Assembly: GCA_009711825.1 (NCBI GenBank)
Contig: VEMY01000008.1
Location: forward strand, 15,345 to 79,344
DNA: 64,000 bases
Direction: 5' to 3'
Source of the DNA: Bacillota bacterium
GTDB lineage: Bacteria > Bacillota > Proteinivoracia > UBA4975 > VEMY01
Shown here: positions 6,765 through 58,081 of the stretch, piece after piece
Position numbering within the stretch: the stretch's first letter is position 1
Layout of the letters: the number at the start of each line of letters is the position of its first letter
The notes under the pieces: generated by a model
Told to the model about the DNA's origin: nothing
What the model saw: only the letters and a program-made list of their open reading frames with translations
The model's database searches: none
Translations under genes and position numbers: made by a program

Positions 6765-6825
6765 AATTAATTCTCCTCTCGATTAAATAACTTCGTACAT
6801 TATAGCATAATCATTTGCTTGTTCA

Positions 6826-6862: not shown

Positions 6863-6875
6863 TAAACATCGTTAT

Positions 6876-8048: not shown

Positions 8049-8106
8049 AATCCGTACCCCCTTTCGCCTGTAAGACGCAATAACCAGGCAAATGGTTCAA
8101 ATAAAT

Positions 8107-8433: not shown

Positions 8434-8603
8434 ATGGAATTAATAATATCAAATTCAGCGCCAGTAATACAGCCCGGCTCAGCCACCGGGGATGTATCTA
8501 GATCAGCACAGGCCGAGGGGGTCCCCATATGCAACTGCTTGGCTTAAAAAGGAAATAAGCCCTAGGTGTCGAAACCTTATTTATCGATATTTTGGAGGAT
8601 CTT

Positions 8604-9296: not shown

Positions 9297-9399
9297 CCTG
9301 AAGCCCCAAGAAAACAGCAATCAATCGCAAAAGCCGCACCCAGACGGATGCGGCTTTTCATTACGTCCCCGAGTGGCATTGCCGAATATGTCTCAGCAA

Positions 9400-9433
9400 A
9401 CCTCCGTCCCCGGGTGGGCACCCGAGTGGGCAG
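9400..9433 (+). repeat. degenerate copy of the ACCTCCGTCCCC-core REP-like palindromic element
   Basis: ACCTCCGTCCCCGGGTGGGCACCCGAGTGGGCAG shares the 12-nt core and TGGGCA arm with 11 other copies in the window. Confidence 0.6.
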
Positions 9434-9515
9434 CGGTGGAATATTTTGTCCCGGGTATGTTATAATTGCTGGTATAAATTATGGAAACGACCTTTCAGAT
9501 GAGGAGGATAAAAAT

Positions 9516-11024
9516 ATGAGCGCAAAGTTATGGCCTAAGCAGGAGGCAGAAAAAATCGTTCAGCGCTTTCCTGATGCAAAAAAATATCTGCTTCAGACCG
9601 GGTTTGGTCCCTCGGGCCACCCCCACATGGGCACTGTCGGCGAGGTGGTGCGCACCCACTTTGTTGCCATGGCCCTACAGGATATGGGCAAGAAAACAGT
9701 AATCCAGGTCTTCTCCGATGACATGGACGGGCTGCGCAAGATTCCTGTGAACATTGATGCCCCCTGGTTGGAGGAGCATCTGGGCAAGCCGGTATCAGCG
9801 ATTCCCGACCCCTATGGCTGCTGCAAGAGCTTCTCAGACCACATGAACAAAGAATTGGTGGAAATGCTCGATGCCACCGGCATTCCCTATAAATTTGTCT
9901 CGGCAGCGGCAGAGTATAAAAAGGGAACATACAATGACGTGCTGCAGCTCTGCATGCGCCGGATTGACAAAGTCCTGGGCATCATTCTGCCCACCCTGCG
10001 GGAGGAGAACCGGCAGGGCTGGTTTCCAATTATGCCTGTGTGTGAACAGTGCGGCAAGGTCAATACCACCAAGGTCCTGAACCACGATGCGGAAACGGCC
10101 ACGGTTGAATACAGCTGCTCTGAGGAATTGAAAGGCGCCGTTGGTTGTGGGCATCATGGTAGCCAGTTTGTCGGTGATGGCCGCAGCAAATTTGGCTGGA
10201 AGGCCGATTGGGGCGCCCGCTGGGCGGTGTTTGGCATCAACTACGAGATGTACGGCAAGGACCTGATCGAGTCGGCCAAGCTTTCCAAGCAAATCGCCCG
10301 GGTGCTGGGCGGCCGCCCGCCGGTGGACATGTTTTATGAGATGTTTTTGGACGAAACCGGCAAAAAGATTTCCAAGTCGGTGGGCCAAGGCCTGAGCGTC
10401 GAGAACTGGACTCGCTGGGGCACCCATGAGGCCTTAAATTACCTGATGTTCAAAAATCCCCGGCAACAGAAAAAGCTCTCCCAGGACACCGTCGTCCAGT
10501 ACATGGACGAAGTTCTGAAAATGGATACCGACAGTCCCGAATATCCCTATATCTACTTTGCCGGCTCAAAACCAAAGCTGCCGATTGTCTACTCGGATTT
10601 AATCAACATCGTTTCTGCGGTGGGAGTCACGGAAATCCGGGTGCTCAAGGAATTTATCCTCGATATCTACGGTGACGAATTGAATGCCCAGTGGGACCGG
10701 GTAGAAGGTTTGCTGGAGCTGGCAATCAATTTCTACTCCGACTTCATCCTGCCGGAGCGCCATTTCCCCACCCTGAGTGCGGATCAAAATGCCCTGGTGG
10801 ATAAGTTCCTCGCCCTGATAGCAGAGCAAACCGAAGCGGAGGCAATCCAGACCGGTACTTATACGATAGCCAAAGAGGCCGGGGTGCCCCCGCGGGAATT
10901 CTTCAAATTGCTCTATCAAATTATCCTTGGCAAACCCAGCGGCCCCAGGATCGGCAGCTTCGTCAGCCAGCTGGGCGCCGACCGGGTAAGCGAAATTATC
11001 GCCAGAAACAGAAAAAACGCGTAA
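9516..11024 (+). CDS. lysK: lysine--tRNA ligase, class I (archaeal-type LysRS)
   Basis: Start at ATG 9516 with RBS GAGGAGG; N-terminal GFGPSGHPHMGTVGE (class I HIGH-type motif) and KISKS-like KISKSVGQG motif; about 503 aa. Confidence 0.8.
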   Translation: MSAKLWPKQEAEKIVQRFPDAKKYLLQTGFGPSGHPHMGTVGEVVRTHFVAMALQDMGKKTVIQVFSDDMDGLRKIPVNIDAPWLEEHLGKPVSAIPDPYGCCKSFSDHMNKELVEMLDATGIPYKFVSAAAEYKKGTYNDVLQLCMRRIDKVLGIILPTLREENRQGWFPIMPVCEQCGKVNTTKVLNHDAETATVEYSCSEELKGAVGCGHHGSQFVGDGRSKFGWKADWGARWAVFGINYEMYGKDLIESAKLSKQIARVLGGRPPVDMFYEMFLDETGKKISKSVGQGLSVENWTRWGTHEALNYLMFKNPRQQKKLSQDTVVQYMDEVLKMDTDSPEYPYIYFAGSKPKLPIVYSDLINIVSAVGVTEIRVLKEFILDIYGDELNAQWDRVEGLLELAINFYSDFILPERHFPTLSADQNALVDKFLALIAEQTEAEAIQTGTYTIAKEAGVPPREFFKLLYQIILGKPSGPRIGSFVSQLGADRVSEIIARNRKNA

Positions 11025-12247: not shown

Positions 12248-13108
12248 TTATTCCAGCCAGCCGTCCACTACGTCCCGGTTTGCTTCCATCCAGGCCTGGG
12301 CCGCTTCGTTATTGTCATCGTATTCTTCCATCATACCAATCAGGTCGCCCAACTGCTCGGCGCTCAGGTAGTAATTGTCCAGGAAGCTCTGCACAGCTGG
12401 GTTGTCGCTGGCAAAATCCATGCGGGTAATGGTGTTAATGGTTTCAGCACCGCCATACACGCCTTTGGGATCCTCCAGGAATTTCAGGTCGAAATCAGCG
12501 AATTTCCAGTGGGGAGTCCACCCGGTGACGACAATCCACTCTTCGTTCTGAATCGCAGTTCTCAGTTCGGCAGTCATCGCGGCATCACCGCTGGCCACCA
12601 GTTCAAAGTCCAGGCCATATTCATCAAGGGCAGTATCGGTTGCGCTCATGATGCCGGCGCCTGGATCGATGCCAACGATACGACCTTCAAATTGATCAAC
12701 GTGATCGTTCAACTCTTCGATAGAGTCAATATCCACATAAGTCGGTACTACCAAACCAATCCTGGCGTCATGGTAGTTGGGACCCAAGTCGACAACTTCG
12801 TCTTCCAACTCGCCGAAATACTCGGCATGGGTTCCAGGCAGCCAGGCGCAGACAATAAAGTCAACATCGCCGGTGGCTACACTTTGCCACATCGGAGCAG
12901 CATCCAGATCATTCAGATTTGCTTCGATACCCAGTTCAGTCTCAATGATATTCGCTGCCAGGTAGCTACTGGCAGTAGCGCAGGCCCAGTTTACATAGCC
13001 AATTTCTACTGATTCCTCGCTGCCGGTATCGCAGCCGATTGCAGCGACACTGAGCATCAAGACCAAACCTAAAACACCTAAACCTTTCAAAAACCTCACA
13101 AATAACAA
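12248..13108 (-). CDS. opuAC: glycine betaine/proline betaine ABC transporter substrate-binding lipoprotein (OpuAC), copy 1
   Basis: 286 aa; lipobox AAIGC; IGYVNWACATASS..., WLPGTHAEYF, WKFADFDLKFLEDP are typical of OpuAC/ProX. Confidence 0.85.
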   Translation of the reverse strand: MLFVRFLKGLGVLGLVLMLSVAAIGCDTGSEESVEIGYVNWACATASSYLAANIIETELGIEANLNDLDAAPMWQSVATGDVDFIVCAWLPGTHAEYFGELEDEVVDLGPNYHDARIGLVVPTYVDIDSIEELNDHVDQFEGRIVGIDPGAGIMSATDTALDEYGLDFELVASGDAAMTAELRTAIQNEEWIVVTGWTPHWKFADFDLKFLEDPKGVYGGAETINTITRMDFASDNPAVQSFLDNYYLSAEQLGDLIGMMEEYDDNNEAAQAWMEANRDVVDGWLE

Positions 13109-13143
13109 ACCTCCAGTTAATGTATTTATATCAGGCCCGGACT

Positions 13144-14025
13144 CTAGTTTTTACCAGAGCCCTGGGTCAGCCTGTCAAGAATAATTGCAATCACGACAAC
13201 AGCAATTCCACCTTCAAATCCCTTGCCCACATCCAGGCTGGAGATGCCGTCCCGGACAACCGAGCCAAGACCGCCGGCACCAATCATCGAGGCGATAACT
13301 ACCATAGAAAGGGCCAGCATAATACACTGGTTGACACCGGCCATAATTGTCGGCATTGCCTGGGGCAGTTGAATTTTAAAGAGCAGTTGATGCCAGTTGG
13401 AGCCATAAGCTTCACCGGCTTCTATCAGCTCCACGGGCACCTGACGGATACCGAGGCTGGTGAGCCGGATTGCCGGTGGCATAGCAAAGATAATCGTCGC
13501 AAACACTGCCGGCACCGAGCCGATCCGGAAAAAGAACACAGCCGGGATCAAATAGACAAAAGCCGGCATCGTCTGCATAAAGTCGAGAATCGGCCGTACG
13601 ATGCTGTTGACCGTTTTGAATTTGGCGGCCAAAATACCCGTGGGGACACCAATTACCAATGCAATCACTGTCGCAGTGATAATCTGAGCCAGGGTAATCA
13701 CGGCATAATCCCAGAGCTGGATGTTGGCAATGAACAAAACACCCAACAAACTGAAAATAGCCACACCGCGCCCGGCGATGCGCCAGGCAATCAGGGCAAT
13801 GATGATTGCAACACCCCAGTAGGGCACAAAGCCAATAATTGCCTCTAATAAATCCACCATCCAGCTGATGCCGGTGCGAATCGCGGCAAACTGGTTGCCG
13901 AAGGTATCCATCAGAAAATCGACAAATACATTCACCCACTCGCCTACCGGCAAGCGGAGGGTCGTAACCCATTCGTACGCATCGCTAAAAAAGCTGGCAG
14001 CAAAAATGTTAGCTGTCATTCTCAT
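13144..14025 (-). CDS. opuAB: glycine betaine ABC transporter permease (OpuAB), copy 1
   Basis: 293 aa; ABC permease with EAA-like loop (EAGEAYGSNWHQLLFKIQLPQAMP). Confidence 0.85.
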   Translation of the reverse strand: MRMTANIFAASFFSDAYEWVTTLRLPVGEWVNVFVDFLMDTFGNQFAAIRTGISWMVDLLEAIIGFVPYWGVAIIIALIAWRIAGRGVAIFSLLGVLFIANIQLWDYAVITLAQIITATVIALVIGVPTGILAAKFKTVNSIVRPILDFMQTMPAFVYLIPAVFFFRIGSVPAVFATIIFAMPPAIRLTSLGIRQVPVELIEAGEAYGSNWHQLLFKIQLPQAMPTIMAGVNQCIMLALSMVVIASMIGAGGLGSVVRDGISSLDVGKGFEGGIAVVVIAIILDRLTQGSGKN

Positions 14026-15214
14026 CCTCCCCCCTGTCAGGAATCAGGGCCTCTAGCACAGAACCCCGGACAATGATTCCCAACAAACGCTTCTGCTCGT
14101 CAACTACAGCCAGAGGGATGGACGTATTGACCGTTAATTCGATGAGCTCAGAGATGCTGGTCTCTGGAGTGACGGTATTGAGCTCATTTTTAATTATATC
14201 GGTCAGGTCTTTTTTGCCGGCCTCAATTGCCGCGTAGACATCATCAATCTGAACAACTCCGATAAGTTTGCGCCGCTCACCGGTAACAAACAAGAAGTCG
14301 ACACCATATTTCTTCATTTCCTTGAGGGCAAGTCTCGGTCCCTGGTTCTCGTTGACAGTGGTCCAAGGCTTAGTCAGAATGTCCCCGGCAGTTAGGACTT
14401 CAGAACGGTTGACTCCCTGGACAAACCGTCTTACATAGTCATCTGCCGGGTTGGTGAGAATCTCCTCGGCGGTTCCTATCTGCACAGTCTTACCGTCTTT
14501 CATCAGCATAATCCGGTCGCCTAGCTTCAGAGCCTCGTCCAAATCATGGGTGATAAAAACAATCGTCTTCTGCATCTGGCTCTGCAGATCCAAAAGCTCA
14601 TCCTGCATGTCGTTTCGAATCAGGGGGTCCAAGGCGCTAAAAGCCTCATCCATTAAGAGAATTTCCGGATCATTGGCCAGCGCCCGGGCAAGTCCCACCC
14701 GCTGCTTCATGCCACCGCTCAATTGGTCGGGATAGCTAGACTCATAGCCCTCGAGACCAACAAGACTGAGGGCGTCCTGGGCCTTTTGCTGCCGCTCTTC
14801 CTTGTCAATGCCCTGGATTTCCAAACCGTATTCAGTATTCGCCAGCACAGTCCGATTGGGTAGCAAGGCGAAATTCTGAAACACCATGCTCATGCTGGTG
14901 CGTCGGGTTTGCCGCAACTGCTTTTTATCCATCTTTAAAATATCTTCTTCGTCGTTCAGCAGTACCTCGCCCCGAGTCGGTTCAATCAGGCGATTCAAAC
15001 AACGAATCAATGTAGATTTGCCGCTGCCGGACAAGCCCATGATCACGAAGACTTCCCCTTGCTTAACGCTGAAATTGGCGTTGTCAATACCGACAGTCAA
15101 TCCCGTCTTATGTAGAATTTCATCCTTTGTCAGCCCTTTAGCCAACAAGTCAAGGCCCCGTTTGGGGTTGGGGCCAAAGATTTTGTACAAGTTTTTAACA
15201 GTTAGTTTATTCAC
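14009..15214 (-). CDS. opuAA: glycine betaine ABC transporter ATP-binding protein with tandem CBS domains (OpuAA), copy 1
   Basis: Start set to GTG 15212-15214 (RBS GGAAGGAGG), aligning with the copy-2 start MVKLAVKNLYKIFG; Walker A GLSGSGKST, signature LSGGMKQRVGLARAL, C-terminal CBS pair. Confidence 0.85.
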   Translation of the reverse strand: MNKLTVKNLYKIFGPNPKRGLDLLAKGLTKDEILHKTGLTVGIDNANFSVKQGEVFVIMGLSGSGKSTLIRCLNRLIEPTRGEVLLNDEEDILKMDKKQLRQTRRTSMSMVFQNFALLPNRTVLANTEYGLEIQGIDKEERQQKAQDALSLVGLEGYESSYPDQLSGGMKQRVGLARALANDPEILLMDEAFSALDPLIRNDMQDELLDLQSQMQKTIVFITHDLDEALKLGDRIMLMKDGKTVQIGTAEEILTNPADDYVRRFVQGVNRSEVLTAGDILTKPWTTVNENQGPRLALKEMKKYGVDFLFVTGERRKLIGVVQIDDVYAAIEAGKKDLTDIIKNELNTVTPETSISELIELTVNTSIPLAVVDEQKRLLGIIVRGSVLEALIPDRGEDENDS

Positions 15215-15419
15215 AACCGGCCTCCTTCCCAGAAACACAATCTTAAGTTTAACAGTCCAGACAAGCACCGTCAAAATGGACCTGCCGTAGCATATTCCAA
15301 TCCAGTTAACTGAGCGATGCTCATAACCATATAGGTAGCGTAGACTCAGGATTCGTAGCGTATTATGCTATATTTCTACCCTTATGTTGGCACTGTCAGA
15401 ATTAGACTAAAAATCGTAC

Positions 15420-15452
15420 ATAAAAAAGCGGCACAGCTTGTGCCGCTTTAGC
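15420..15452 (-). terminator. terminator after opuAC copy 2
   Basis: GCTAAAGCGGCACAAGCTGTGCCGCTTTTTTATG on the minus strand. Confidence 0.7.
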
Positions 15453-15453
15453 G

Positions 15454-16368
15454 CTACTCAGGTAGCCATCCATTAACCACTTCACGATTTTCGTCAATCC
15501 ATTGCTGGACTGCCTCATCGATATCATCGATATCCTCAATCATTCCCATCAAACTTCCCAGTTGTTCGGGAGTCATGAAAAAGTTCTCCAGGAACCTCTG
15601 GACGCGAGGATTGTCCTCAGCAAACCCTTCCCGGGTGATAGTAAAAATTGATTCTTCGCCACCATATACATTCTCTGGATCCTCCAGGAACTTGAGCTCA
15701 AACTCAGCAAACTTCCAATGCGGGGACCAGCCAGTGACAACAATCCATTCCTCATTATCGATTGCGGTTTGTAGTTCCGCCGCCATTGCTGCATCACTAC
15801 TATCAACCAAGGTCAAATCCAGTTCATAAACCTCGATCGCCTCTTCGGTGGCGCCCATAATCCCGGCGCCGGCATCGATTCCGACAATCCTCCCCTCAAA
15901 TTGCTCCGCATTTTCATTGAGCTCAGTGATGGAGTCAATTTCCACATAGGTGGGAACCACCAAACCAATCTGTGCACCCTGGTAATTCTCTCGGACCCGG
16001 ACCACATCATCTTCCAGCTCCGCGTAATATTCCGAGTGTGTAACCGGAAGCCAGGCGCTGAGAATGAAATCCAAATCCCCGGTGGCCAAGCTCTGCCACA
16101 TCAGGGCAGCGCCCAGGTCTGTCAATTCAACCGTAACATCTTCCATATCTTCTTCCAGGATTGTTTGCACAAGATGTCCGGTGGCAGTGGCGCAGGCCCA
16201 GTTGACGTAACCGATGGTAACGTCTTCCGGCTCCACTTGTTCACCGCCGTTATCCGGGGGTGGCTCGATACCATTATCCTCGGGCGGAGTATCGGCCCTT
16301 GGCCACATAAATATCGCCAGTGCCACCAATCCCACTACAATTAAACCAATAAGCCACGACTTGTTCAT
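15454..16368 (-). CDS. opuAC: glycine betaine ABC transporter substrate-binding protein (OpuAC), copy 2
   Basis: 304 aa; about 65% identical to copy 1 over the binding domain (IGYVNWACATATG..., WKFAEFELKFLEDP). Confidence 0.85.
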   Translation of the reverse strand: MNKSWLIGLIVVGLVALAIFMWPRADTPPEDNGIEPPPDNGGEQVEPEDVTIGYVNWACATATGHLVQTILEEDMEDVTVELTDLGAALMWQSLATGDLDFILSAWLPVTHSEYYAELEDDVVRVRENYQGAQIGLVVPTYVEIDSITELNENAEQFEGRIVGIDAGAGIMGATEEAIEVYELDLTLVDSSDAAMAAELQTAIDNEEWIVVTGWSPHWKFAEFELKFLEDPENVYGGEESIFTITREGFAEDNPRVQRFLENFFMTPEQLGSLMGMIEDIDDIDEAVQQWIDENREVVNGWLPE

Positions 16369-16389
16369 TGCTCAATATCCTCCTTGAAA

Positions 16390-17283
16390 TTAGTTGCGGT
16401 ACCCCTTACTACTTCCCTTGCCCTGGGTCAAACGGTCCAGGATAATCGCAATAATCACCACCGCCAACCCTCCCTCAAAGCCCATGCCGACATTGAGACG
16501 ATCGATACCTGTCAGCACCACCGACCCTAAGCCGCCGGCGCCAATCATTGAAGCGATGACAACCATCGACAATGAAAGCATAATACATTGATTGATTCCT
16601 GCCATGATTGTCGGCAACGCCTGGGGCAGCTGCACTTTAAACAATAGCTGGTACCAGTTGGAGCCGAAGGCCTCACCGGCCTCAATCAGTTCCTGGGGAA
16701 CCTGACGGATACCGAGACTGGTGAGCCGAATCGCCGGCGGCATCGCAAAAATAATCGTCGCGAATACGGCCGGCACCGCCCCAATTCGAAAGAAGAACAC
16801 CGCCGGTATCAGGTAGACAAAGGCCGGCATCGTTTGCATCAAATCCAGTAGCGGTCGCAGCACAGTATTTACTGGCCCAAATTTGGCGCCCAGAATCCCC
16901 AGGGGAACTCCAATTAACAAGGCAATCAGGGTGGCGGTAATAATCAGCGCCAAGGTGCTGACTGTCGCCGGCCAGAGACCGATATTTGCAATCAACAGCA
17001 CTCCCAAAAACGCAAATATAGCTTCTCCCCTGCCTGCCAGCCGCCAGGCCAGCACAGCGATTACAAGCGCCAGTGCCCAGAAGGGAAATAACCCCAAAAC
17101 GTCAGCCAGCAATTCCACCAGCCAGGAGATGCCAGAACGGATGGCATCGAACTGGGCGTTGAAGGTATCCGTTAACCAGTCGATGAACGCAGCAAACCAA
17201 TCGCCGATGGGAACCTGGTATTCCTGGAATCGCTCCAAAAAAGTTGTCTGCAAGAATATGTTACTCATCTTCATCTGGCTCAC
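16390..17283 (-). CDS. opuAB: glycine betaine ABC transporter permease (OpuAB), copy 2
   Basis: 297 aa, paralog of 13144-14025. Confidence 0.85.
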   Translation of the reverse strand: MSQMKMSNIFLQTTFLERFQEYQVPIGDWFAAFIDWLTDTFNAQFDAIRSGISWLVELLADVLGLFPFWALALVIAVLAWRLAGRGEAIFAFLGVLLIANIGLWPATVSTLALIITATLIALLIGVPLGILGAKFGPVNTVLRPLLDLMQTMPAFVYLIPAVFFFRIGAVPAVFATIIFAMPPAIRLTSLGIRQVPQELIEAGEAFGSNWYQLLFKVQLPQALPTIMAGINQCIMLSLSMVVIASMIGAGGLGSVVLTGIDRLNVGMGFEGGLAVVIIAIILDRLTQGKGSSKGYRN

Positions 17284-18466
17284 CCCTTTCCGGGATCAGG
17301 GCTTCCAGCACACTGCCCTTGACGATGACCCCTTGCAGACGCTTGTTCTCATCGACAACTGCCACCGGCACAGAGGACCCGACTGTCAGTTCAATCAGTT
17401 CTGAGATGCTTGTATTGGGCGCCACCGTGTTCACAACATCCTGCTTGATAATCTGCCTCAGGTTCTTGTCGCCCCTTTCAATTGCCTTAGAAACATCATC
17501 AATCAGAACCACCCCAGCCAGCGCCCGGTGCTCTCCCAGCACAAACAGGGATTCTGTTCCATACTTTTTCATTTCTTTGAGGGCAAGCCGCGGCCCCTGC
17601 TGAAATGATACTGTAGACCAGGGTTTGACCATGATGTCCCGGGCGCTGAGGACCTCGCTGCGATTCACGCCCTGGACAAAGCGACGCACGTATTCATCAG
17701 CAGGGTTGGTAAGGATATCCTCGGCGGTGCCGATCTGCACCGCTCGGCCATCCTTCATCAGCATGATACGATCTCCCAATTTCAAGGCTTCGTCCAGATC
17801 ATGGGTAATGAAGATAATAGTTTTGTTCATTTCATCCTGAAGCTCCAATAATTCATCCTGCATGTCGCCGCGAATCAATGGATCAAGGGCGCTGAAGGCT
17901 TCATCCATCAGAAGAATTTCCGGATCATTGGCCAATGCCCGGGCCAAGCCCACACGCTGTTTCATACCGCCGCTGAGCTGTTCGGGAAAGCTCTCTTCAT
18001 AGCCCGCAAGGCTAACCAGTTCCAGAGATTTCATCGCTTTTTCCTGGCGAGTGCTTTTATCCACACCCTGAATTTCCAAACCATACTCCACATTTGCCAG
18101 CACCGTCCGGTTGGGCAGGAGCGCAAAGTTCTGAAACACCATGCTCATTTTGGTGCGGCGCATCTCCAGTAATTCCTTTTTGCTCATCTTAAGAATATCA
18201 ATATCATCCAGGATGATTTCGCCGGCAGTTGGCATAATCAGACGGTTGAGGCAACGCACCATTGTGGACTTGCCACTGCCGGAAAGTCCCATGATTACAA
18301 AAACTTCACCCTGCTCAACCTCAAAACTGGCATCATTAATACCCACTGTCAGCCCAGTTTTCTTAAGAATCTCTTCCTTTCCCAATCCCTTTTTTAACAG
18401 ATCGAGTCCGCGCTGGGGATTGGGTCCAAAAATCTTATATAGGTTTTTTACTGCCAATTTGACCAT
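17261..18466 (-). CDS. opuAA: glycine betaine ABC transporter ATPase with CBS domains (OpuAA), copy 2
   Basis: 401 aa; MVKLAVKNLYKIFG, Walker A/B, signature motif, CBS pair; RBS GGAGGAC upstream. Confidence 0.88.
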   Translation of the reverse strand: MVKLAVKNLYKIFGPNPQRGLDLLKKGLGKEEILKKTGLTVGINDASFEVEQGEVFVIMGLSGSGKSTMVRCLNRLIMPTAGEIILDDIDILKMSKKELLEMRRTKMSMVFQNFALLPNRTVLANVEYGLEIQGVDKSTRQEKAMKSLELVSLAGYEESFPEQLSGGMKQRVGLARALANDPEILLMDEAFSALDPLIRGDMQDELLELQDEMNKTIIFITHDLDEALKLGDRIMLMKDGRAVQIGTAEDILTNPADEYVRRFVQGVNRSEVLSARDIMVKPWSTVSFQQGPRLALKEMKKYGTESLFVLGEHRALAGVVLIDDVSKAIERGDKNLRQIIKQDVVNTVAPNTSISELIELTVGSSVPVAVVDENKRLQGVIVKGSVLEALIPERGEPDEDE

Positions 18467-49075: not shown

Positions 49076-50056
49076 CTATTTGTCATCTTCGGATTTAAGT
49101 CTTAATATCTCCTCGGCAGTCCGTTCTTCGGTGACCAGGACATTGAGTAGCCCGGTTTTGAGCACTGCATAAATAGCCCGCGCCTTGCCTATCCCTCCGG
49201 CAACCGCCATTCGCACTCTGGCGCGGCTAATCTGCTCCGGTGTAGCGGCAATCAGGCCATTTTGGTTGGAAGTAGTAGGTATTAAACCATTTTGCAGCAC
49301 AAACCAAAGACAGAAATCGGCAACCGGTTTTTCTTTGACCTCTTGGACAAATGCTTGCAGGCCGCGATAGAAATCCGGGTCCTCAAGCCGGCGCAGGGTA
49401 GGGATTGCCCCAATTCCAAGCACCGCCCAATCCATTTTATCCCAGAGTTGTACCACTTCCTGGGAATGGGGTTCCGCCAGAACCGATTCTCGAATTTGCT
49501 TACCGGAAACAAGAGCCGGCGCATAAAGATATTTGGACTTGCCCCCCAGTGCTGTGGCCGTCCGGGTAAGGATTTCAGTAATTGGGTAACCGGCATCTCC
49601 CTCTCCCAATCCGCCTGACAGTGGAATTACCGTCGGTTGTAATGTCTGGTCAGCGGGGAGTTTGTTGGCCATTTCGTAAATACTGTGCCCCCGTCCCATG
49701 CCGAGGATTGCCTGTTCCGGTAGGTTTTCGCCAATGTACTCAGCCGCAGCCCTGGCAATTTGCGGAACGATAACCTCCTGCTGGTCAACTGCCATCGGGG
49801 TTACAATCGCGTCTTGCAGGGCAAAAGCTTGTTTAAGTTTTTGTTGAATGACTGTATTTTGGGCAATTGGGTTGCGAACGGTTATTTCCACAATTCCATT
49901 CTCCCGGGCCTGGCTTAAGAGCCGAGAGACCTTTGGTCGGGAAATCTCCAACATCTCTGCGATTTCTTCTTGAGTTTTGCCCTTTTGGTAGCAAAGTTGA
50001 GCCACTGCCACCATCAAACTGATGTCATCGCGGGATGGTTTTTTGCTCCTCGCCAT
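49076..50056 (-). CDS. SorC/DeoR-family sugar-binding transcriptional regulator
   Basis: 326 aa; N-terminal HTH (KTQEEIAEMLEISRPKVSRLL) plus SorC sugar-phosphate binding domain. Confidence 0.8.
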   Translation of the reverse strand: MARSKKPSRDDISLMVAVAQLCYQKGKTQEEIAEMLEISRPKVSRLLSQARENGIVEITVRNPIAQNTVIQQKLKQAFALQDAIVTPMAVDQQEVIVPQIARAAAEYIGENLPEQAILGMGRGHSIYEMANKLPADQTLQPTVIPLSGGLGEGDAGYPITEILTRTATALGGKSKYLYAPALVSGKQIRESVLAEPHSQEVVQLWDKMDWAVLGIGAIPTLRRLEDPDFYRGLQAFVQEVKEKPVADFCLWFVLQNGLIPTTSNQNGLIAATPEQISRARVRMAVAGGIGKARAIYAVLKTGLLNVLVTEERTAEEILRLKSEDDK

Positions 50057-50175
50057 AATTCACTCCACCTCGCTGCCAAGATTTACTAATATTCCATAAG
50101 TATGGTCTTATTATAAATGTAGGTATTTTATTTTGCAACCAAAGAAGGGACTCGTTGACGAGTCCCCTCCCCCTA

Positions 50176-50964
50176 TTACAGTTCTTTTTTGGCTTCCTCG
50201 ACAGTTGCGTCTTCGTGGAGAATGCGCGCAATTGCCCTGGTGATTTTTTCTGGCTCCGGCTGCCGCCAGACATTGCGGCCCATGGCTACGCCCCGGCCGC
50301 CTGCCTGCACAGACTCATATACCTGCTGCAGCAATGCGATTGGGTCTTTTGCTTTGCCGCCGCCCAGCACAACGATGGGAGCAAAAGTGCCAGCAACAAC
50401 ACTCTTGAAGCTCTCGATATCACCTGTGAAATCAGTTTTGATAAAGTCTGCGCCCAGCTCAACACCCATCCGGCAAGCGAGGGCAATGCTCTCGGGAGTG
50501 CGGGAATCTTCGCCACCTTCAAAGCCCCGGGGAAGCATTTCAGCCATCAAAGGCATGCCCCATTTGTAGCAATCACTAGCCAATTCTGAGAGGTAAGGGA
50601 GCGTTTCAGCCTCAAACTTGGAACCCGGGAAGCCCATGCAGACCACGCCGTCAGCGCCCAGACGCAGGGCATCTTCTACGGAGTAGATCCGGCGAATCGG
50701 GTTGCTGTTCTGAGCCATTTGGGAATAGCCGCCATCAACACGCAGCACGAGGCCGGCGGAACCGATGGAATCGGCGAACTTGCTAGCGATACCGAAGGTT
50801 GTCATGATTACGTCGGCGCCACCGGCGACAACCCGCTCAATCTTCTCAGCCGGGTTTGCGAGTTCTGGCAAAACGTTCATCCCAGAACCATGGTCCATGG
50901 CGACAATTAAAGTGCGACCTGTCTTGCGGAAAATGTTGTTTAGTCTTTTGGTTTTCATCTTCAA
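50176..50964 (-). CDS. class I aldolase of the DhnA/FbaB (archaeal-type FBP aldolase / LsrF / DeoC-LacD) family
   Basis: 262 aa; TIM-barrel class I aldolase motifs (IVAMDHG..., GADFIKT, Schiff-base Lys region). Confidence 0.65.
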   Translation of the reverse strand: MKMKTKRLNNIFRKTGRTLIVAMDHGSGMNVLPELANPAEKIERVVAGGADVIMTTFGIASKFADSIGSAGLVLRVDGGYSQMAQNSNPIRRIYSVEDALRLGADGVVCMGFPGSKFEAETLPYLSELASDCYKWGMPLMAEMLPRGFEGGEDSRTPESIALACRMGVELGADFIKTDFTGDIESFKSVVAGTFAPIVVLGGGKAKDPIALLQQVYESVQAGGRGVAMGRNVWRQPEPEKITRAIARILHEDATVEEAKKEL

Positions 50965-50974
50965 TTCCTCCTGA

Positions 50975-52015
50975 TTACATAGTTAAAACGATACGATAAG
51001 TGGCGTTGTTGCTTGCTTTGTCCAGAGCGGCCTTGGCATCGGCCAGAGGCTGTGTTTCCTCAATCAGTTCGGCTGTGCTGATGATGCCTTTGGAAATCAG
51101 GGCTGCTGCATCCCACATATCCCGCAGGTTTTTGCCCTTTACTCCGGTTAGGGCAATGCCGGTGTCGTGAATCAAGTTCGGGTTAATGTCCAGGGGCTCT
51201 CCCGGATGGGCAGAGGCGAAATAGAGCACACTGCCATAATTGGCTACCATCTTAATTGCATCATCATTGGCATGTTTGTTACCGATGGTAATGATCACAG
51301 CTTCGGCCTTTTTGCCTTCGTTCAATTCCTGAACTCTGACCTCAACATCTTCCTCCGCCGGATTAATAACAGCGTCAGCGCCTAGCTTTAAGGCCTTTTC
51401 TCTGCGACCGGCATCAAGTTCACTCACAATTACTCGGGCACCACTGCTTTTCGCAGCCAGGACATTTAGCAAGCCCATGGTGCCGGCGCCGATGACAACA
51501 ACGGTATCACCGAGACGCACATTCACTTTCTTGATTCCCTGAAGCACACAGGCCAATGGCTCGGTGAGCGCCGCCTGCTCGAACGGAATATCTTTGGATA
51601 TCTTCAATGCCCGCTTGGAAGCGATAACCATATACTCAGCCATCCCGAACAAGCCGACAACACCATCAATTTTGGGCAATGGCGCCTTCTTGACGCAGTG
51701 CTCTTCCAAACCTTTGCTGCAGTTGTCGCATTCGCCGCAGAAGTAAGGAACACCCAGGGCCACATGATCGCCCACCTGAAGATCAGTCTGACAGTCAGGG
51801 CCGATCTTCTCAACCACACCAGAAACTTCATGGCCCCAACACCCCGGATAGGGGAATTTTTTAACACCTGTATATACCCGTTGTTCCATTGTGCACAGTG
51901 CGACTGCACGTTGGCGGATTAAAACCTCGCCCGGGCCCGGCTCGGGCACTGGTAATTCGCGAATTTCAAACTCGTAAGGAGCGGTCATTACTCCTGCTTT
52001 CATTGTCTTTGTCAT
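50975..52015 (-). CDS. zinc-dependent medium-chain alcohol/polyol dehydrogenase (sorbitol/threonine dehydrogenase-like)
   Basis: Start ATG 52013-52015 (RBS AGGAGG); GHEVSGVV Zn-ligand region, GAGTMGLL Rossmann motif, structural-Zn Cys cluster (CGECDNC). Confidence 0.8.
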   Translation of the reverse strand: MTKTMKAGVMTAPYEFEIRELPVPEPGPGEVLIRQRAVALCTMEQRVYTGVKKFPYPGCWGHEVSGVVEKIGPDCQTDLQVGDHVALGVPYFCGECDNCSKGLEEHCVKKAPLPKIDGVVGLFGMAEYMVIASKRALKISKDIPFEQAALTEPLACVLQGIKKVNVRLGDTVVVIGAGTMGLLNVLAAKSSGARVIVSELDAGRREKALKLGADAVINPAEEDVEVRVQELNEGKKAEAVIITIGNKHANDDAIKMVANYGSVLYFASAHPGEPLDINPNLIHDTGIALTGVKGKNLRDMWDAAALISKGIISTAELIEETQPLADAKAALDKASNNATYRIVLTM

Positions 52016-52166
52016 TTCACTTGTCCTCCTTTCTCGGGGGTACCCGAGAATGCTAGATAATTTTTTCACATACTGCTGTGGTCGGGGTATGACAATTGGT
52101 GTAATTTGCGGGCAAAGGCCACACCTTTGCCCGCTTTGATTAGATTGAGAGAACTAATTAGATGTC

Positions 52167-52928
52167 TTAGGGAACGAGTACCAGGTTGAAGTAGGTCAGG
52201 AGAATCGCGAAGAACATCAGGCCAAAGATTAGGTAGACAGGCTTGACACCCTTGCGCAATAATGCGTAAGCCAGGAAGAACATACCCAGGGCCGGGATCC
52301 CAGGCATCAGCTGGTCGAGGATTTCCTGAAGGTTGATAACCTGCTCACCAGTGGTGTAGGTAATGTTCAGGGTGATGTCCACGAGGCTGGCAACCATGGT
52401 GCCGACCAAAACGAGACCGACAATCTTTGCACCTTCAGCTACGGTGTCAATGATACCGCGCATCCGGGAGAGAGCTTCTACACCCAGGTTATAGCCGAGG
52501 CCAACCAGGTAGTATGCGCTACCTGCAAAGAGGGCAATCAAGGTGAACACGGAGAAGAACCAACCAAAGGAGTTACCGTCGAGAACCATGTTGGTACCAA
52601 TGGCAAGAATAATCGGGACCAAGCTGGCGTGGAACAGTGAGTCGCCGATACCAGCAACGGGACCCATGGTCGCAACCTTCAGACCCTGGATAGCTTCGCC
52701 GTCAATGGTGTCTTTGTTCTCAATCCGCTGTGTTTCCATTGCTGCAACCATGCCGGGCACAACAGCGCCGGCGTAAACGTTGGTGTTCCAGAAGGTTATA
52801 TTTCTGGTCATGGACTCAGCGCGTTCTTCGTCAGTCTTATACTTCCGGAGCACAGGCGCCAACTGATAGGCAAAGCCCCAACCGCCAAGAACTTCAAAGG
52901 AAGCATTGTAGTACCAGCAGAAGTTACG
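52167..52928 (-). CDS. PTS mannose/fructose/sorbose-family IID component, portion downstream of an in-frame TAG; N-terminal about 38 aa are encoded in-frame upstream, fused to IIC
   Basis: Homology to ManZ starts before the TAG at 52929-52931 (KEPLSFADRVSMA*RNFCWYYNASFEVLGGWGFAYQ aligns with KKLTQSDIRGVFLRSNLFQGSWNFERMQALGFCF). Confidence 0.6.
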   Translation of the reverse strand, partial: RNFCWYYNASFEVLGGWGFAYQLAPVLRKYKTDEERAESMTRNITFWNTNVYAGAVVPGMVAAMETQRIENKDTIDGEAIQGLKVATMGPVAGIGDSLFHASLVPIILAIGTNMVLDGNSFGWFFSVFTLIALFAGSAYYLVGLGYNLGVEALSRMRGIIDTVAEGAKIVGLVLVGTMVASLVDITLNITYTTGEQVINLQEILDQLMPGIPALGMFFLAYALLRKGVKPVYLIFGLMFFAILLTYFNLVLVP

Positions 52929-53825
52929 CTAGGCCATGGAGACACGATCAGCGAAGCTCAGAGGCTCTTTGACGATCTCGCCGTCAGCTGCAGCAGCAGC
53001 TTCTGAATCTTCTACAGAATCCTGACCATTGCGGGTCTTCATGTAGAACACAACCAGACCGGTAACAACCAGAGCCAAAGCCAGCGGGGTCATGTTGGTG
53101 GTCATGCCAATGGCAAAACCGGCAACAAACAGGAGAATCAGAGAACCAGGGTTCATGCTGTAGATCAAGAGCGCGAAACCGGCAACAGGGAGCATTCCCT
53201 GCATAACGCCAAAACCATTTTGCAACCACTCAGGAATTAATCCGAGCAGGCGACCAACCAGGGGGATACCATAGTAAACACCCAGGAAGGCGGGGACAGC
53301 ATTGATAAGTGTAATCGCGATAGGCTGTAACAGGGCATGCCAGAGCTCCAGCTTCTTGATATCGCCTTTCTTGGCAGCTTGGATTGCAATCCGCTCATAG
53401 AAGAAAGACATGATTGTCAGGTTGCCCAAGAAGAGCATCAGCGAGAATACCGAAATCGGGATTGCCATGCCCAACACAGCGCCGTGATCGGCACCGAGAA
53501 CGCTGGCGAAGATGACAGCCATAATAGTGGCGACCATCGGCCGCGGCGGAACCGCAGCGCCAACGATAAACACACCAAAGAATAAGAGCTGGATCAGAGC
53601 GCCGACTTGAACACCGGTGGCAAAGTCACCAATAAACAAACCGGTCAGACCACCAATCGCCAGGGGATGGTCAGAAATGAAACGCCATACTTGCAAGATA
53701 CCGATAATAATACCATGGGCTGGTGTTTCTTTCTGCCTAATAGCGGCGATCAGCTGGAGGGGCCATGCTGTTACGAGAAACCAGCCACCTGCCAAAAATG
53801 CAGCAATTAAAGCTGTTCCTAACAT
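52929..53825 (-). CDS. PTS mannose-family IIC component, translationally continuous (same frame, no stop) with the IID N-terminus
   Basis: 298 aa ORF; the IIC body ends near ...LVVTGLVVFY and the frame continues MKTRNGQDSVEDSEAAAAADGEIVKEPLSFADRVSMA, which is the IID N-terminus. Confidence 0.7.
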   Translation of the reverse strand: MLGTALIAAFLAGGWFLVTAWPLQLIAAIRQKETPAHGIIIGILQVWRFISDHPLAIGGLTGLFIGDFATGVQVGALIQLLFFGVFIVGAAVPPRPMVATIMAVIFASVLGADHGAVLGMAIPISVFSLMLFLGNLTIMSFFYERIAIQAAKKGDIKKLELWHALLQPIAITLINAVPAFLGVYYGIPLVGRLLGLIPEWLQNGFGVMQGMLPVAGFALLIYSMNPGSLILLFVAGFAIGMTTNMTPLALALVVTGLVVFYMKTRNGQDSVEDSEAAAAADGEIVKEPLSFADRVSMA

Positions 53826-53852: not shown

Positions 53853-54338
53853 TTAGAGATAACGGGTAATATCTGTGGGCCGATCCTGGGGTACTACCCT
53901 GATCTCACATTTGACACCTAGTTCCTGCAGACGCTTGAAATCTGCGCGATCCTCATCGGTCAGCATCACCGACTTAGTTACTTTGGTAGCCTGGTCGGTT
54001 TTACCCATGGCGCCCATATTGCCAATCACGAAATGCTCAAACTTTACGCCACCTTCTTTGAGGGCCAAAACTTCGTCGGGACCGGTGGTGATTACAAATA
54101 CCCGGGTGCTGTCCCCAGCCAAGGGACCCGTGAGCTTTTCGATTGCGTCTGCCACTGTGACGACCTCAGTCTTAATGTTCTTGGGCGCTGTGAGTTCAAC
54201 GACACTTTTACGCACCTTGTCGTTCACGACCCGGTCGCTGGCAATCATGATCCGGTTGGCATTGGCATGGGAAATCCATTTGGTAGTTATCTGACCATGA
54301 ATCAAACGGTCATCAATTCTGATAAGGGCGATAGCCAA
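53853..54338 (-). CDS. PTS mannose/sorbose-family IIB component
   Basis: Start TTG 54336-54338 (RBS AGGAGGAA): MAIALIRIDDRLIHGQI..., active-site His region. Confidence 0.8.
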   Translation of the reverse strand: MAIALIRIDDRLIHGQITTKWISHANANRIMIASDRVVNDKVRKSVVELTAPKNIKTEVVTVADAIEKLTGPLAGDSTRVFVITTGPDEVLALKEGGVKFEHFVIGNMGAMGKTDQATKVTKSVMLTDEDRADFKRLQELGVKCEIRVVPQDRPTDITRYL

Positions 54339-54403
54339 AGTGCATTCCTCCTGAATTAGTATTAAATACATGCCGAACCATCACTATTGAAGCTTGAGGA
54401 GCA

Positions 54404-54793
54404 TTAGATTTTCAGTTGCTGTATCCCCTCCTTACCCAAATCTACAAGCTTTTCGGCTATCTGGATCGGCGCTTCACCGCTACCCCGCATACCGACAGCT
54501 TCCAACAGCATTCCCAGATTCACACCCACCAGGCATACCGCGTTTGTTTCAGCGGTTACAGCCAGTGCAATGTTGCAAGGGGTGCCTCCAAACAGGTCTA
54601 CGGCGATTAACGCCCCCTGCCCGGTATCGACTTCTGCAACTGCTGCTAACATTTTTTCTTTAAGAACCTCTGGGGCCATGTCCGGTTCCAGATTGATTGC
54701 CTTAAACTGCTCCTGGGGTCCGACAATCAACTCCATTGCCTCCGCAAAACCCTGGGCAAGGCCACCATGGGCTGCTACTACGAGTCCTATCAC
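54404..54793 (-). CDS. PTS mannose-family IIA component
   Basis: 129 aa; MIGLVVAAHGGLAQG... (phosphorylatable His) and EIIA-Man fold. Confidence 0.8.
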   Translation of the reverse strand: MIGLVVAAHGGLAQGFAEAMELIVGPQEQFKAINLEPDMAPEVLKEKMLAAVAEVDTGQGALIAVDLFGGTPCNIALAVTAETNAVCLVGVNLGMLLEAVGMRGSGEAPIQIAEKLVDLGKEGIQQLKI

Positions 54794-54941: not shown

Positions 54942-55397
54942 TTAGCTATCGCCCCGGTAGGTGGCGACTTCCTTCTTGATTTCATCTACATCCAAAACCA
55001 TCTCCATCATGCTGATTTGCTCTTCCCAGATGGCTGGATCAATCTGCTCTTGCAGCTCAAAAATATGAAACACTGGGAGTTCCAACTGAACTCCCGCCAA
55101 TGGACCGGCGAAGGTGGGGTCGCCGCTGGTCACTGTCTCGGCAGCCAGGCCGCTGGCTTCCGCCTCGGCCCCTCCCAATACAACAACCAATTGCTCACGG
55201 CCATACTTTTCGGCCAGAGCCTTGACCCGCGCCTGATTTTCCAGATCCATGGCGCCTGCTGCAGTTCAGACAAAACATTCAGTTGCAGAGAAAACTATTT
55301 CCGCGCCGGCAGCTTCCAGACATTCATTGATTGCCGGCCCGGGCAATCCATCCCGGTCGCCCAGGACAATTGCCTTCTTGCCTTTTAAGTCAATCAT
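54942..55397 (-). CDS. grdA: glycine/sarcosine/betaine reductase complex selenoprotein A (GrdA) with in-frame UGA selenocysteine codon at 55266-55268
   Basis: Start ATG 55395-55397 (RBS AAAGGAG): [61 protein letters not shown]... matches the invariant GrdA CFVUTAAGAMD motif. The ORF track shows only the post-UGA part (54942-55250). Confidence 0.85.
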
Positions 55398-55433: not shown

Positions 55434-56744
55434 TTAATATGCTTCCGCGAAGAAGCGGCTGTGCCCCGACTGATTGCCGGAACAGTATAGCAATGTGGTG
55501 GTGGGAAATTCAATTGGGTCAAGAGCGTCAGGGAACCGCCCGCCGGCTTCTTTATCAAGACGAAGCTTAGGGCCCCCAACAACATTATCCATCCGGGGCA
55601 GCTGCACCGGCTTCTCAATGCTGGAGCCGCTGACAATTGCGTCGGCCTCAGGGACATCGTCAACCAGGAGTATTCCCTCGGTTCCATCAGCGCCGCCGAA
55701 TTCAAAGGTTACGGTGGAAGCCTTGATCCCAGCCTTCTCCGCCAGCTGGATTGTCAGCATGCCGTCGGTGGCAGCGTTGCCACCACCTTCCCAGGCCATG
55801 ACAAGTCCGTCGGCCTTGAGCATCCGGGCCAGCTTCACACAGACCCCGGCGCAACGCACCTTATGCCAATGGGTGGGGTTGTGGCTGCGGGAGAAAATGA
55901 CGCCCTTGAAGTTCAAATCCTTGCCGTGACGGCGGTAGAGGTCCAACAGAATCGGGTGATTCACATGTAGATAGGTGGGAACCTTAAAGGCTGGCCACAC
56001 ATAGTTTCCGCTGACAACGCAGCCGTCCAGCATCTCATTTGGATGAAGAACCGTCGGCACCAGCTCCTCCACATCCTTGCCATAGAGGAATGTGTTGGCG
56101 TAGACACCTTGGTTCTGCACCTGCCAGACCAAAACCACGTTGGGAAGATCTGGATTTGTCTCTTCGATGGAGAACAATTCCTCGTCATCTGCTTCACCCT
56201 GAGCTGCCTTAGCAGCCAGGTATTCGGCTACTTTTAAGCTGGAGAGCCGGATATCCCGGTCATACTCTTCAGCAGATTTGCCGGGTTTCAGCTCATAGGT
56301 CATTACCAGATTCACAGTCTCCGAAAAGGGAGTGATCCCCTTGTACGGTCCTGTCATATCCATGATTGCTTCCCGGGGATACAAGAGGCCGCTGCTGGCA
56401 CTGGCGCTGTCCCAGGGCAAGGGCGCCGACTGCATGACGGTAAAACCGTCTAAAACAGCGGTAGTGCCTTCGCCTATCATCTCCGGCGAGCCGAAGAATC
56501 CGGAATATGGCACGCCGCGGCCGTCAAGCCTGGCCATAGGCTGCAATGTATCCAAAAGGTGAATTATCCGCGTGGACTCGCCCGGGTGGACCAAATGGAA
56601 CTCAATTCTTTCGATATTTTCGGTCTGTTCGGCGGCCAGTCGCTCAATCTCTTCTTTATTTATGGTCAGCTTGCCCGATTCCAGGGCTGTTTGAGCGCCC
56701 CAGGCGGCAGACTGAACCCGATAGTATTTTCTGGTCAGTTCCAT
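55434..56744 (-). CDS. grdE: glycine/sarcosine/betaine reductase component B proprotein subunit (GrdE/GrdG/GrdI family)
   Basis: 436 aa; Gly_reductase family architecture, positioned 3' of the selenoprotein B gene. Confidence 0.7.
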   Translation of the reverse strand: MELTRKYYRVQSAAWGAQTALESGKLTINKEEIERLAAEQTENIERIEFHLVHPGESTRIIHLLDTLQPMARLDGRGVPYSGFFGSPEMIGEGTTAVLDGFTVMQSAPLPWDSASASSGLLYPREAIMDMTGPYKGITPFSETVNLVMTYELKPGKSAEEYDRDIRLSSLKVAEYLAAKAAQGEADDEELFSIEETNPDLPNVVLVWQVQNQGVYANTFLYGKDVEELVPTVLHPNEMLDGCVVSGNYVWPAFKVPTYLHVNHPILLDLYRRHGKDLNFKGVIFSRSHNPTHWHKVRCAGVCVKLARMLKADGLVMAWEGGGNAATDGMLTIQLAEKAGIKASTVTFEFGGADGTEGILLVDDVPEADAIVSGSSIEKPVQLPRMDNVVGGPKLRLDKEAGGRFPDALDPIEFPTTTLLYCSGNQSGHSRFFAEAY

Positions 56745-58081
56745 TATCTTTCCTCCTTTTCCAACCGGACATGAAACAGTGTCGGCTCTTCTACCGGTGT
56801 TTGCAATGCCTCCACAGCCTTCAGGAGCATTTGCTTCTGGAACTCTTTCTCCCGGTCAGCCGGTAGTTCCGGCGCTCCTGCCGGCGATGTGAACTGGTTG
56901 CCGGCAATGACCCGGTTGGCCCCTACCGACAGGGCAATGGATGTAAAGGCGGTGATCAGGACAGCAGAGATGCCCACACGTTCGAGTTCCTTGGTAATCG
57001 TTGCACCGCAACGAGTACAAGTACCTCACGTGGAAGTAAGAATCGCTGCCGGCACACCCGCTTCCAGAAGCTCAGCGGCGATTTGCGCGCCTAATCCTTC
57101 ACTGGTCTTAATGTTGGTGCCAACACCAGCGGTCGAGTAGAACTTGGGATAAACGCGGCCAATCTTCCCTTCCTGCTCCAAAGCGCGCAGGGGGCTATAA
57201 GGCACTACCCGGGACGGGTCTTCATTAACCAAAGTAGTGTCGAAACCACCGTGGATAGACTCATACTCGCCGGCAGCTAACTCTTCCAGTCCTTCCAGGC
57301 TGTAGCTGCCGTAGCTGGTGGAGAAGGCCTGCTTTAACCCATCCGGGTTGCCGGTGGGCACCAAAGCGCCGGTTGTAATCAGGGCAAATGTTTTGGTTTC
57401 AGGCTGCTCAAGAACCGGTGCTGGTGGCACCTGCTCAAAGCCGCGCAGCGGCACTTCGGTCTCATATTCTTCGCCCCGCAATTTCTTAAGCAACAGTTCC
57501 ACAGTCCGTTGGGCTGCAGTCTTTTCATGCCATTCGTTGTAGCGATAGCCCCGGGGGAAGTAACCTTCCAGACGGGCGGGCCCAACTTCCTCTCCCTTTG
57601 CCAGCTTGAGGGCAAATGCGGCCAGCGGTGGCAGGGCCTTACGCATACCGGCTGCTGTTTCCGGTGTGCGGATGATATAGTTATCAGATACAAACATTGG
57701 CACCGCCGGGTTCTCCCAATACATGGCGGTTACTGCGGGAATCCCAAACTCCCGACGCACAAAATCTACGAACTTGCCGCAGGCAACACCGTAGCGCCCA
57801 GCGTTGAAGGCGGGCCCGGCAATCACTACGTCAGGCTTGACCTCCTGAATAATTTCCCGCAGGCGAGGCAATAATCCCTCGAATTTGTCATCATCATTAA
57901 AATAGTTGTCACCGCAGGCAATGGTTTTTACCACTTCCATCTCATCCTGCCAAAACTTATCCATACCGAGAGCCGGCCCCAGCTTTTGGTCGTATTCCTG
58001 TAACCCAATATCTGCTTTGTCTTCGCCGCCAATTCCGGCGTAAAACTGATTGATGTAGTACAAGGCTCTTTTCTTAGACAT
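56744..58081 (-). CDS. grdB: glycine/sarcosine/betaine reductase component B selenoprotein (GrdB/GrdF/GrdH family) with in-frame UGA at 57026-57028
   Basis: The 351 aa ORF ending AAILTST is followed, in the same frame, by TGA and a 94 aa continuation (GTCTRCGATITKELERVGISAVLITAF...) that is the ORF-track 56744-56977 entry. U-x-x-C-x-x-C context; total about 445 aa, typical for GrdB. Confidence 0.8.
56999..57013 (-). ncRNA. SECIS-like hairpin 12 nt downstream of the grdB-like UGA
   Basis: Minus-strand CGTTGC-GGT-GCAACG (6-bp stem, GGU loop) at the spacing expected for a bacterial SECIS. Confidence 0.5.

Follow-up and report, generated by a model that had tools for sequence, protein, structure and literature searches.

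We find that the mannose/sorbose-family PTS gene row in the 64-kb window (the whole stretch of DNA that was analysed) encodes its membrane components IIC and IID in a single reading frame, and that this frame is interrupted by an in-frame TAG inside the IID domain. Relatives carry the same fused gene uninterrupted, with a tryptophan codon at the site of the stop. The window gene is probably a nascent pseudogene of a fused IIC-IID gene, made by a recent nonsense mutation. The in-frame TAG is neither new nor surprising: it is most likely an ordinary nonsense mutation and not a case of an expanded genetic code.

A stop codon inside the IID domain of a fused gene

The gene row runs IIA, IIB, fused IIC-IID, dehydrogenase, aldolase and regulator, and its PTS, whose parts belong to the mannose/fructose/sorbose family (TC 4.A.6), lies entirely on the minus strand (Table 1), a point left unstated in the first-pass annotation. 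IIA and IIB, encoded directly upstream of IIC-IID, appear intact, with near full-length domain matches and their His-containing motifs kept; the true start of IIB is likely TTG 54338, which follows a Shine-Dalgarno sequence and gives 161 aa, the length of the gene call in the Logan assembly of SRR9198955 (L003). The neighbouring dehydrogenase and DhnA-type aldolase suggest that the substrate is a sugar or polyol other than mannose.

Table 1. Features of the PTS gene row in the window
Feature	Position	Strand	Basis or remark
Whole fused IIC-IID frame, mannose/sorbose-family PTS	52167..53825	-	Translation; Pfam EII-Sor and EIID-AGA; about 552 codons including the internal TAG
In-frame TAG, codon 299 of about 552	52929..52931	-	TGG in orthologs
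TAG-terminated product, 298 aa: IIC domain, linker and first 10 IID residues	52932..53825	-	NCBI: IIC, MTI94607.1
Acidic low-complexity IIC/IID linker MKTRNGQDSVEDSEAAAAADGEIVKEP, residues 262-288	52962..53042	-	Between end of IIC match and start of IID match
22 codons right after the TAG, RNFCWYYNASFEVLGGWGFAYQ	52863..52928	-	IID N-terminal segment; region of the family's N[YF]ER[ML]Q motif
231-aa ORF from the first possible restart, TTG 52862	52167..52862	-	NCBI: IID, MTI94606.1
PTS IIB, sorbose subfamily, motif RLIHGQ	53853..54371	-	Pfam PTSIIB_sorb, E 1.9e-44
PTS IIA, mannose family, N-terminal His within VVAAHGG	54404..54793	-	Pfam EIIA-man, E 3.7e-22
Downstream genes of the same row	49076..52069	-	Pfam and NCBIfam
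Zn-dependent dehydrogenase, likely start 52015	within 49076..52069	-	Pfam/NCBIfam
DhnA/DeoC-type aldolase	50176..50964	-	Pfam/NCBIfam
SorC/DeoR-type regulator	49076..50056	-	Pfam/NCBIfam

A strong Shine-Dalgarno sequence, TAGGAGGT, stands 8 nt 5' of the ATG at 53825, from which a frame of 298 codons runs to a C-terminal end ...KEPLSFADRVSMA and then meets the TAG at 52931..52929. After the TAG the same frame goes on as RNFCWYYNASFEVLGGWGFAYQLAPVLRKY... for 253 codons more, to a TAA at 52169..52167. Upstream of the stop, residues 47-255 match Pfam EII-Sor (PF03609; E 1.4e-41, 142.9 bits against a gathering cut-off of 26.3). With the TAG read as X, the IID part matches Pfam EIID-AGA (PF03613) at E 4e-69 (233.2 bits against a cut-off of 25), over profile positions 5-264 of 265, beginning 7 residues before the TAG and continuing through the C-terminus; the alignments of solved Man-PTS IID chains begin at residue 288-290, likewise upstream of the TAG. 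Because the Pfam and solved-chain alignments both begin upstream of it, the IID domain spans the stop. Translation and both kinds of alignment thus confirm what the first-pass annotation had read from the sequence, namely that IIC and IID lie in one frame with a TAG inside the conserved IID N-terminus. The near full-length PF03613 match is obtained only with the TAG bridged, and no uninterrupted IID coding sequence is present; the 231-aa ORF beyond the stop begins at position 36 of the NCBIfam profile TIGR00828 and scores 171.6, below the cut-off of 292.75.

The position of the TAG is a conserved hydrophobic one, as had also been proposed: among the best 150 homologues the column holds W 42, L 32, F 21, I 13, V 9 and K 1. 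Right after it comes a strongly conserved R; the motif N[YF]ER[ML]Q, whose columns are strongly conserved in the same 150 homologues, follows 11-16 columns further on. No other pair of long ORFs in the window is joined by an in-frame TAG with homology across the stop. The other in-frame TAG that joins long ORFs, at 58102, was rejected as a parallel, as it separates different genes (AFOR, a small ThiS-like gene and a grdB-like gene).

IIC-IID fusions are common

HMMER, run exhaustively against 1.84 billion cluster representatives (clustered at 50% identity), gave 984 matches at E ≤ 1e-10, and 114 of the best 150 of these are at least 480 aa long. Fused homologues in the hit table mostly align as a single stretch over both domains; the other 36 of the best 150 are shorter than 480 aa, and the fully listed ones among them match IID alone. 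Many human-gut and other metagenome loci match over residues about 53-549. A novel fusion was therefore rejected, fused homologues being abundant: the IIC-IID fusion is ordinary, both within this clade and across many other bacteria, and takes the form of one polypeptide of about 550 aa with a short acidic linker.

These natural fusions (P0017-P0084; L004-L084; about 520-550 aa) share the domain order of the window gene and are similar in length, the closest at 50-80% identity, and one of them, L004, also shares the gene order of the window: a dehydrogenase and an aldolase follow its fused gene in the same order (ORFs 7792..8832 and 8852..9634), the comparison being of these two genes. The inspected fusions (L004, L005, L006 and those proteins whose full sequence was read) are uninterrupted, whereas the window gene has a stop at a Trp codon.

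Both domains are also homologous to E. coli ManY/ManZ and to the Gram-positive Man-PTS IIC/IID of solved structure (PDB 6K1H, 7DYR, 7XNO, 7VLX, 8HFS). The alignments to PDB chains cover the IID part between residues 288-301 and about 540 of the fused frame (E 1e-38 to 1e-28) and the IIC part over residues 41-284 (E 3e-20 to 8e-12). The solved systems keep IIC and IID as separate polypeptides; in the window and its relatives an acidic linker of about 27 aa joins the two, and the window gene is further cut by the TAG. Natural mannose-family IIC-IID fusions are thus common in metagenomes, yet all solved structures are of split systems; the term 'IICD', in the literature searched, denotes the complex of IIC and IID and not a natural fusion.

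The ancestral codon is TGG

Searching with the IID part recovered that same 231-aa ORF (P0001, from an NCBI MAG) and P0002, a 79% identical partial protein with both Pfam domains. The DNA of this relative (L001, L002) reads TCT TTG GCC TGG CGA AAC TTC where the window reads TCC ATG GCC TAG CGT AAC TTC. Its GTDB species representative, L004 (MAG Bacillota bacterium AS09scLD_78), has a single uninterrupted ORF of 549 codons (6001..7650; 79-80% identity) in which the site reads ...ISLAWRNFTWYYNASFEVLGG...; the genome scan gave this sister species only. From the metagenome scan came L005 (80% identity) and L006 (63% identity), both with an uninterrupted fused ORF and Trp at the site, together with many distant fused loci and no second copy of the window lineage. 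P0017, a 50% identical cluster representative of 550 aa, is likewise uninterrupted with Trp at the site. An exact-protein look-up matched one sample only, SRR9198955.

Among relatives the intact fused gene has 549-556 codons, with Trp at the site in L004, L005, L006 and P0017, and the codon TGG itself was read in L001, L002, L004 and L005. Because all four relatives are uninterrupted with Trp at this position, the ancestral state is a fused IIC-IID gene with TGG, from which the window differs by a single G-to-A transition. Set against these intact orthologs the window gene has a premature stop made by one substitution (TGG to TAG), which fits a pseudogene by nonsense mutation. The first-pass annotation had proposed aligning the IIC-IID junction with orthologs, and had named a sense codon at this position, together with absence of pyl genes, as evidence against recoding; Trp in all four implies such a codon.

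Conservation relative to L004 varies along the protein. The linker is the least conserved part (59% amino acid identity over the tested interval, residues 256-298), and the 22 codons after the TAG, which cannot be translated without readthrough, are the best conserved stretch, at 95% amino acid identity.

The strain represented by L001 and L002 carries a lesion of its own in this gene: an independent 1-nt insertion, GGCTTAAC to GGCTTTAAC, which frameshifts the IIC part and is absent from the 99.5% identical L004. The insertion is explained either by the gene having been inactivated independently a second time or by an assembly error at low coverage.

Consequence and age of the stop

Beyond the TAG, the frame first offers a start codon at TTG 52862. 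The sequence 5' of it, TGGCGGTTGGGGCTTTGCCTATCAG, lacks GGAGG, which stands 6-9 nt before five other starts of the gene row (those read with upstream sequence). A product from this TTG would miss about the first 35 IID profile positions, including the conserved N[YF]ER[ML]Q segment. Because IID is left without a ribosome-binding site, and the restart omits the conserved N-terminal segment, the transporter is probably non-functional; most likely it is inactive, reduced to an IIC with a useless tail and no functional IID. With no second lesion and no rise in dN, this prediction draws on one stop codon and the lack of a restart signal.

We propose that a G-to-A transition turned the conserved Trp codon 299 from TGG into TAG. 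As TAG is a normal terminator here, translation would yield IIC, the linker and 10 IID residues before it stops; the remainder of IID has no ribosome-binding site, its first possible start would omit the conserved N-terminal segment, and the transporter would be non-functional and its gene a very young pseudogene. Low-level near-cognate readthrough of UAG-C could still yield some full-length protein.

The lesion appears to be young. Compared with L004, pN is 0.127 in the IIC core and 0.123 after the TAG, with no second lesion, so that neither further degeneration nor relaxed constraint was found downstream of the stop; pairwise dS to L004 is saturated, which leaves this decay test with little power and able to rule out only long-standing decay. 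A long-standing pseudogene was rejected on these grounds, the IID half being as conserved as the IIC half. Because the IID half has no extra decay, the mutation is probably recent, and the equal pN values are consistent with a very recent event.

The first-pass annotation had offered three explanations of the TAG and chosen none: a recent nonsense mutation, a sequencing error, or stop-codon recoding. The first is supported by TGG in the orthologs, and its restart at TTG 52862 is indeed the first start available, but one without a Shine-Dalgarno sequence. The second is now less likely and the third is not supported, as set out below.

A less likely base-call error or minority strain

In this reading a base-call or assembly error, or a minority strain in the MAG consensus, produced the TAG, and the organism or most of its population has TGG. 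The source is a metagenome-assembled genome, judged here from assemblies, and the two available assemblies differ at one base (window 50314), a sign of some polymorphism or error in the data. The 1-nt insertion of L001/L002 (TT to TTT) occurs in low-coverage assemblies (the L002 contig name gives a coverage of 3.6) and its absence from L004 indicates that such lesions can be assembly- or strain-specific. However, the TAG is also present in the Logan assembly of SRR9198955, a second assembly that may rest on the same reads as the first and that departs from the window at 1 of 17,109 bases, outside the PTS genes; no other broken genes were seen in the 64-kb window; and consensus substitution errors are rare. 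We consider an artefact unlikely.

Fission and readthrough as improbable alternatives

The nonsense mutation would not have inactivated the transporter if the TAG were read through, by a suppressor or pyrrolysyl-tRNA encoded elsewhere, or if the gene had split into two working subunits. Were either true, the fused transporter gene would be functional, and in the case of fission it would have been caught in the act. Taken together, a still functional transporter of either kind is quite unlikely.

Under fission in progress, the gene would yield two working subunits, a tailed IIC and a truncated IID whose translation restarts at TTG 52862. Separate IIC and IID are the classical arrangement of most Man-PTS, as the 36 shorter sequences among the 150 best homologues recall, and NCBI annotates two separate genes here; an in-frame TTG lies 22 codons 3' of the TAG, and the part downstream is well conserved. 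Yet the cut falls inside the IID domain and not in the linker, the restart has no Shine-Dalgarno sequence, and about 35 profile positions, with the N[YF]ER[ML]Q segment, would be deleted. We regard fission as very improbable.

Functional readthrough would have the TAG decoded by pyrrolysyl-tRNA, by another amber suppressor or by efficient natural readthrough, so that full-length IIC-IID is made. The undecayed IID half would fit, and the organism already recodes a stop codon: TGA is read as selenocysteine at 55268 in grdA and at 57028 in the grdB-like gene, where an Rfam SECIS_4 match (57025..56988) directly follows the TGA. (The neighbouring reductase had been called a betaine reductase; its assignment to the selenoprotein B subfamily stands, whereas betaine specificity is unproven, the NCBIfam family being the generic glycine/sarcosine/betaine one.)

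Stop usage within the window offers readthrough no help. Among 57 non-overlapping long ORFs, taken as the putative genes of the window, TAA ends 35, TAG 18 and TGA 4; without the PTS gene, TAG ends 17 of 56 (about 30%). Depletion of TAG as a terminator is seen in archaea that use pyrrolysine and is weaker in bacteria. Here there is no depletion, in a small sample and by a measure that is weak for bacteria. A genome-wide comparison of TAG use had been suggested in the first-pass annotation; run within the window, it shows no unusually low usage.

The site itself is equally unlike a pyrrolysine site. An in-frame TAG within a conserved domain is the only likeness to the Pyl genes mtmB, mtbB and mttB, whose orthologs share the TAG and whose genomes encode pylTSBCD, whereas here the TAG is not conserved (TGG or Trp in L001, L002, L004, L005, L006 and P0017), the protein is a PTS IID of an unrelated family, and the window is without pyl. 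To our knowledge, the functionally required Pyl sites are those of methylamine methyltransferases, not of transporters. Aromatic or aliphatic residues are typical of this position in the family, and 1 of the 150 homologues has K.

As the first-pass annotation had noted, the window contains no pyl or mtt (methylamine methyltransferase) genes; a Pfam scan of the 49 larger ORFs, and the L003 Pfam annotation for the other large ORFs, bear this out, over a search that covered the 64-kb window. Matches to the class I LysRS are all 'Bacillota bacterium' MAGs, the nearest named group being Symbiobacteriaceae at about 56% identity, too broad a placement to bear on Pyl genes. There are no tRNA genes in the 64 kb either. 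Downstream of the stop there is no stable RNA structure: a 132-nt stretch starting at the TAG is no more stably folded than shuffled sequence (z = 0.18) and has no Rfam match, in contrast to the selenocysteine TGA at 57028 with its SECIS_4 match.

Pyrrolysine recoding, the third of the earlier options, was rejected on the ortholog codons, the residue profile, TAG usage and a window without pyl/mtt genes, tRNA or RNA structure, and readthrough of whatever kind is most improbable.

Annotation and comparable lesions

In the public record this locus is two apparently intact genes (MTI94607.1, 298 aa, and MTI94606.1, 231 aa), whereas our evidence favours a single fused gene that a stop codon has disabled. 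Metabolic reconstructions of the MAG should leave this PTS out of the functional transporters until the reads have been checked. The case also advises caution with an in-frame TAG in anaerobic Bacillota, even beside real selenocysteine recoding: orthologs should be compared before pyrrolysine is invoked. Its value is that of an annotation correction, with little significance beyond annotation quality.

Bacteriocins that use the Man-PTS complex as their receptor readily select for loss-of-function mutations in the IIC/IID genes of lactic acid bacteria, and most garvicin Q-resistant mutants are reported to carry frameshifts in ptnC/ptnD (PMC10783117). Like the nonsense mutation of the window gene and the frameshift seen in L001/L002, these are disrupting lesions in the membrane components of a Man-family PTS, and we speculate that selection by bacteriocins or phages may be the reason why lesions are tolerated or favoured here.

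Annotation of the Fused PTS Gene and Its Relatives

NCBI's annotation for the source MAG enters the two halves of the interrupted fused IIC-IID gene as two separate, seemingly intact genes, which masks the lesion. We compared the window with L003, a Logan assembly of run SRR9198955, over 17,109 bases, and the sole difference lies at position 50314, where the window's minus strand reads G and L003 reads T; the mismatch reflects either polymorphism or a discrepancy between the two assemblies. Position 50314 falls within the aldolase gene.

In two ENA assemblies (L001 and L002), the fused gene of the sister species carries a 1-nt insertion, which turns TT into TTT and frameshifts the N-terminal part of IIC. 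The insertion is absent from the GTDB representative of that species (L004), which is 99.5% identical to L001 and L002. At NCBI the frameshifted gene appears in two parts, HOB35827.1 (hypothetical protein, 66 aa) and HOB35826.1 (partial IID).

Distant fused IIC-IID genes, at 26-36% identity, are frequent on contigs from human-gut and fermentation metagenomes (loci L007-L084). Every solved structure of a Man-PTS shows a system in which IIC and IID are split, and "IICD" in the papers we found denotes the complex of IIC and IID, not natural fusions.

Features discussed in this section (window positions unless a locus is named)
Feature	Position	Strand	Remarks
HATPase_c ORF (118 aa) and DUF1576 membrane protein gene (417 aa)	1750..3352	-	118-aa ORF is HATPase_c alone
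Class I (archaeal-type) lysyl-tRNA synthetase	9348..11021	+	Pfam tRNA-synt_1f; NCBIfam lysS_arch
OpuA-type glycine-betaine ABC transporter genes	12248..18466	-	two sets in tandem
NCBI entries for fused-gene halves	52167..53825	-	MTI94607.1, IIC, 298 aa; MTI94606.1, IID, 231 aa, starting at TTG
grdA	54942..55397	-	in-frame TGA at 55268; divided into ORFs of 43 aa and 102 aa
SECIS element	56988..57025	-	Rfam SECIS_4 match immediately behind TGA 57028
grdB-like selenoprotein B	56747..58081	-	TGA at 57028 after 351 codons, 93 codons beyond
1-nt insertion, sister species	L001 4071..4085; L002 4006..4020		compared with L004 6170..6185

Selenoprotein Genes and Reductase Class

Two selenoprotein genes in the window, grdA and the grdB-like gene, contain an in-frame TGA. 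The 77-aa ORF at 56744..56977 is the C-terminal portion of selenoprotein B, not a gene of its own. Stop codons of the putative genes in the window are mostly TAA (35/57), followed by TAG (18/57), with TGA in just 4/57; this usage is skewed, in a sequence of 52% G+C, and TGA doubles here as a selenocysteine codon.

The first-pass annotation had presupposed a betaine reductase yielding trimethylamine. NCBIfam places the reductase (55434..58081, minus strand) only in the generic glycine/betaine/sarcosine/D-proline selenoprotein B subfamily. The score is a little higher for sarcosine (GrdF/GrdG) than for glycine and betaine, and all of them fall far below their cut-offs. In each OpuA-type set, a substrate-binding protein is encoded together with a permease and an ATPase that carries CBS domains; about 40 kb separates the sets from the reductase genes.

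Other Genes in the Window

The lysyl-tRNA synthetase, an archaeal-type class I enzyme carried by a Bacillota MAG, has its nearest named relatives in Symbiobacteriaceae/Symbiobacteriia MAGs (about 55-57% identity). As annotated, its N-terminus extends about 55 aa beyond that of the homologues, which are about 500 aa long, so translation probably starts further downstream. The histidine-kinase ATPase-domain ORF shares 8 nt with the end of the DUF1576 gene; the arrangement is an unusual one, either a split or a pairing.
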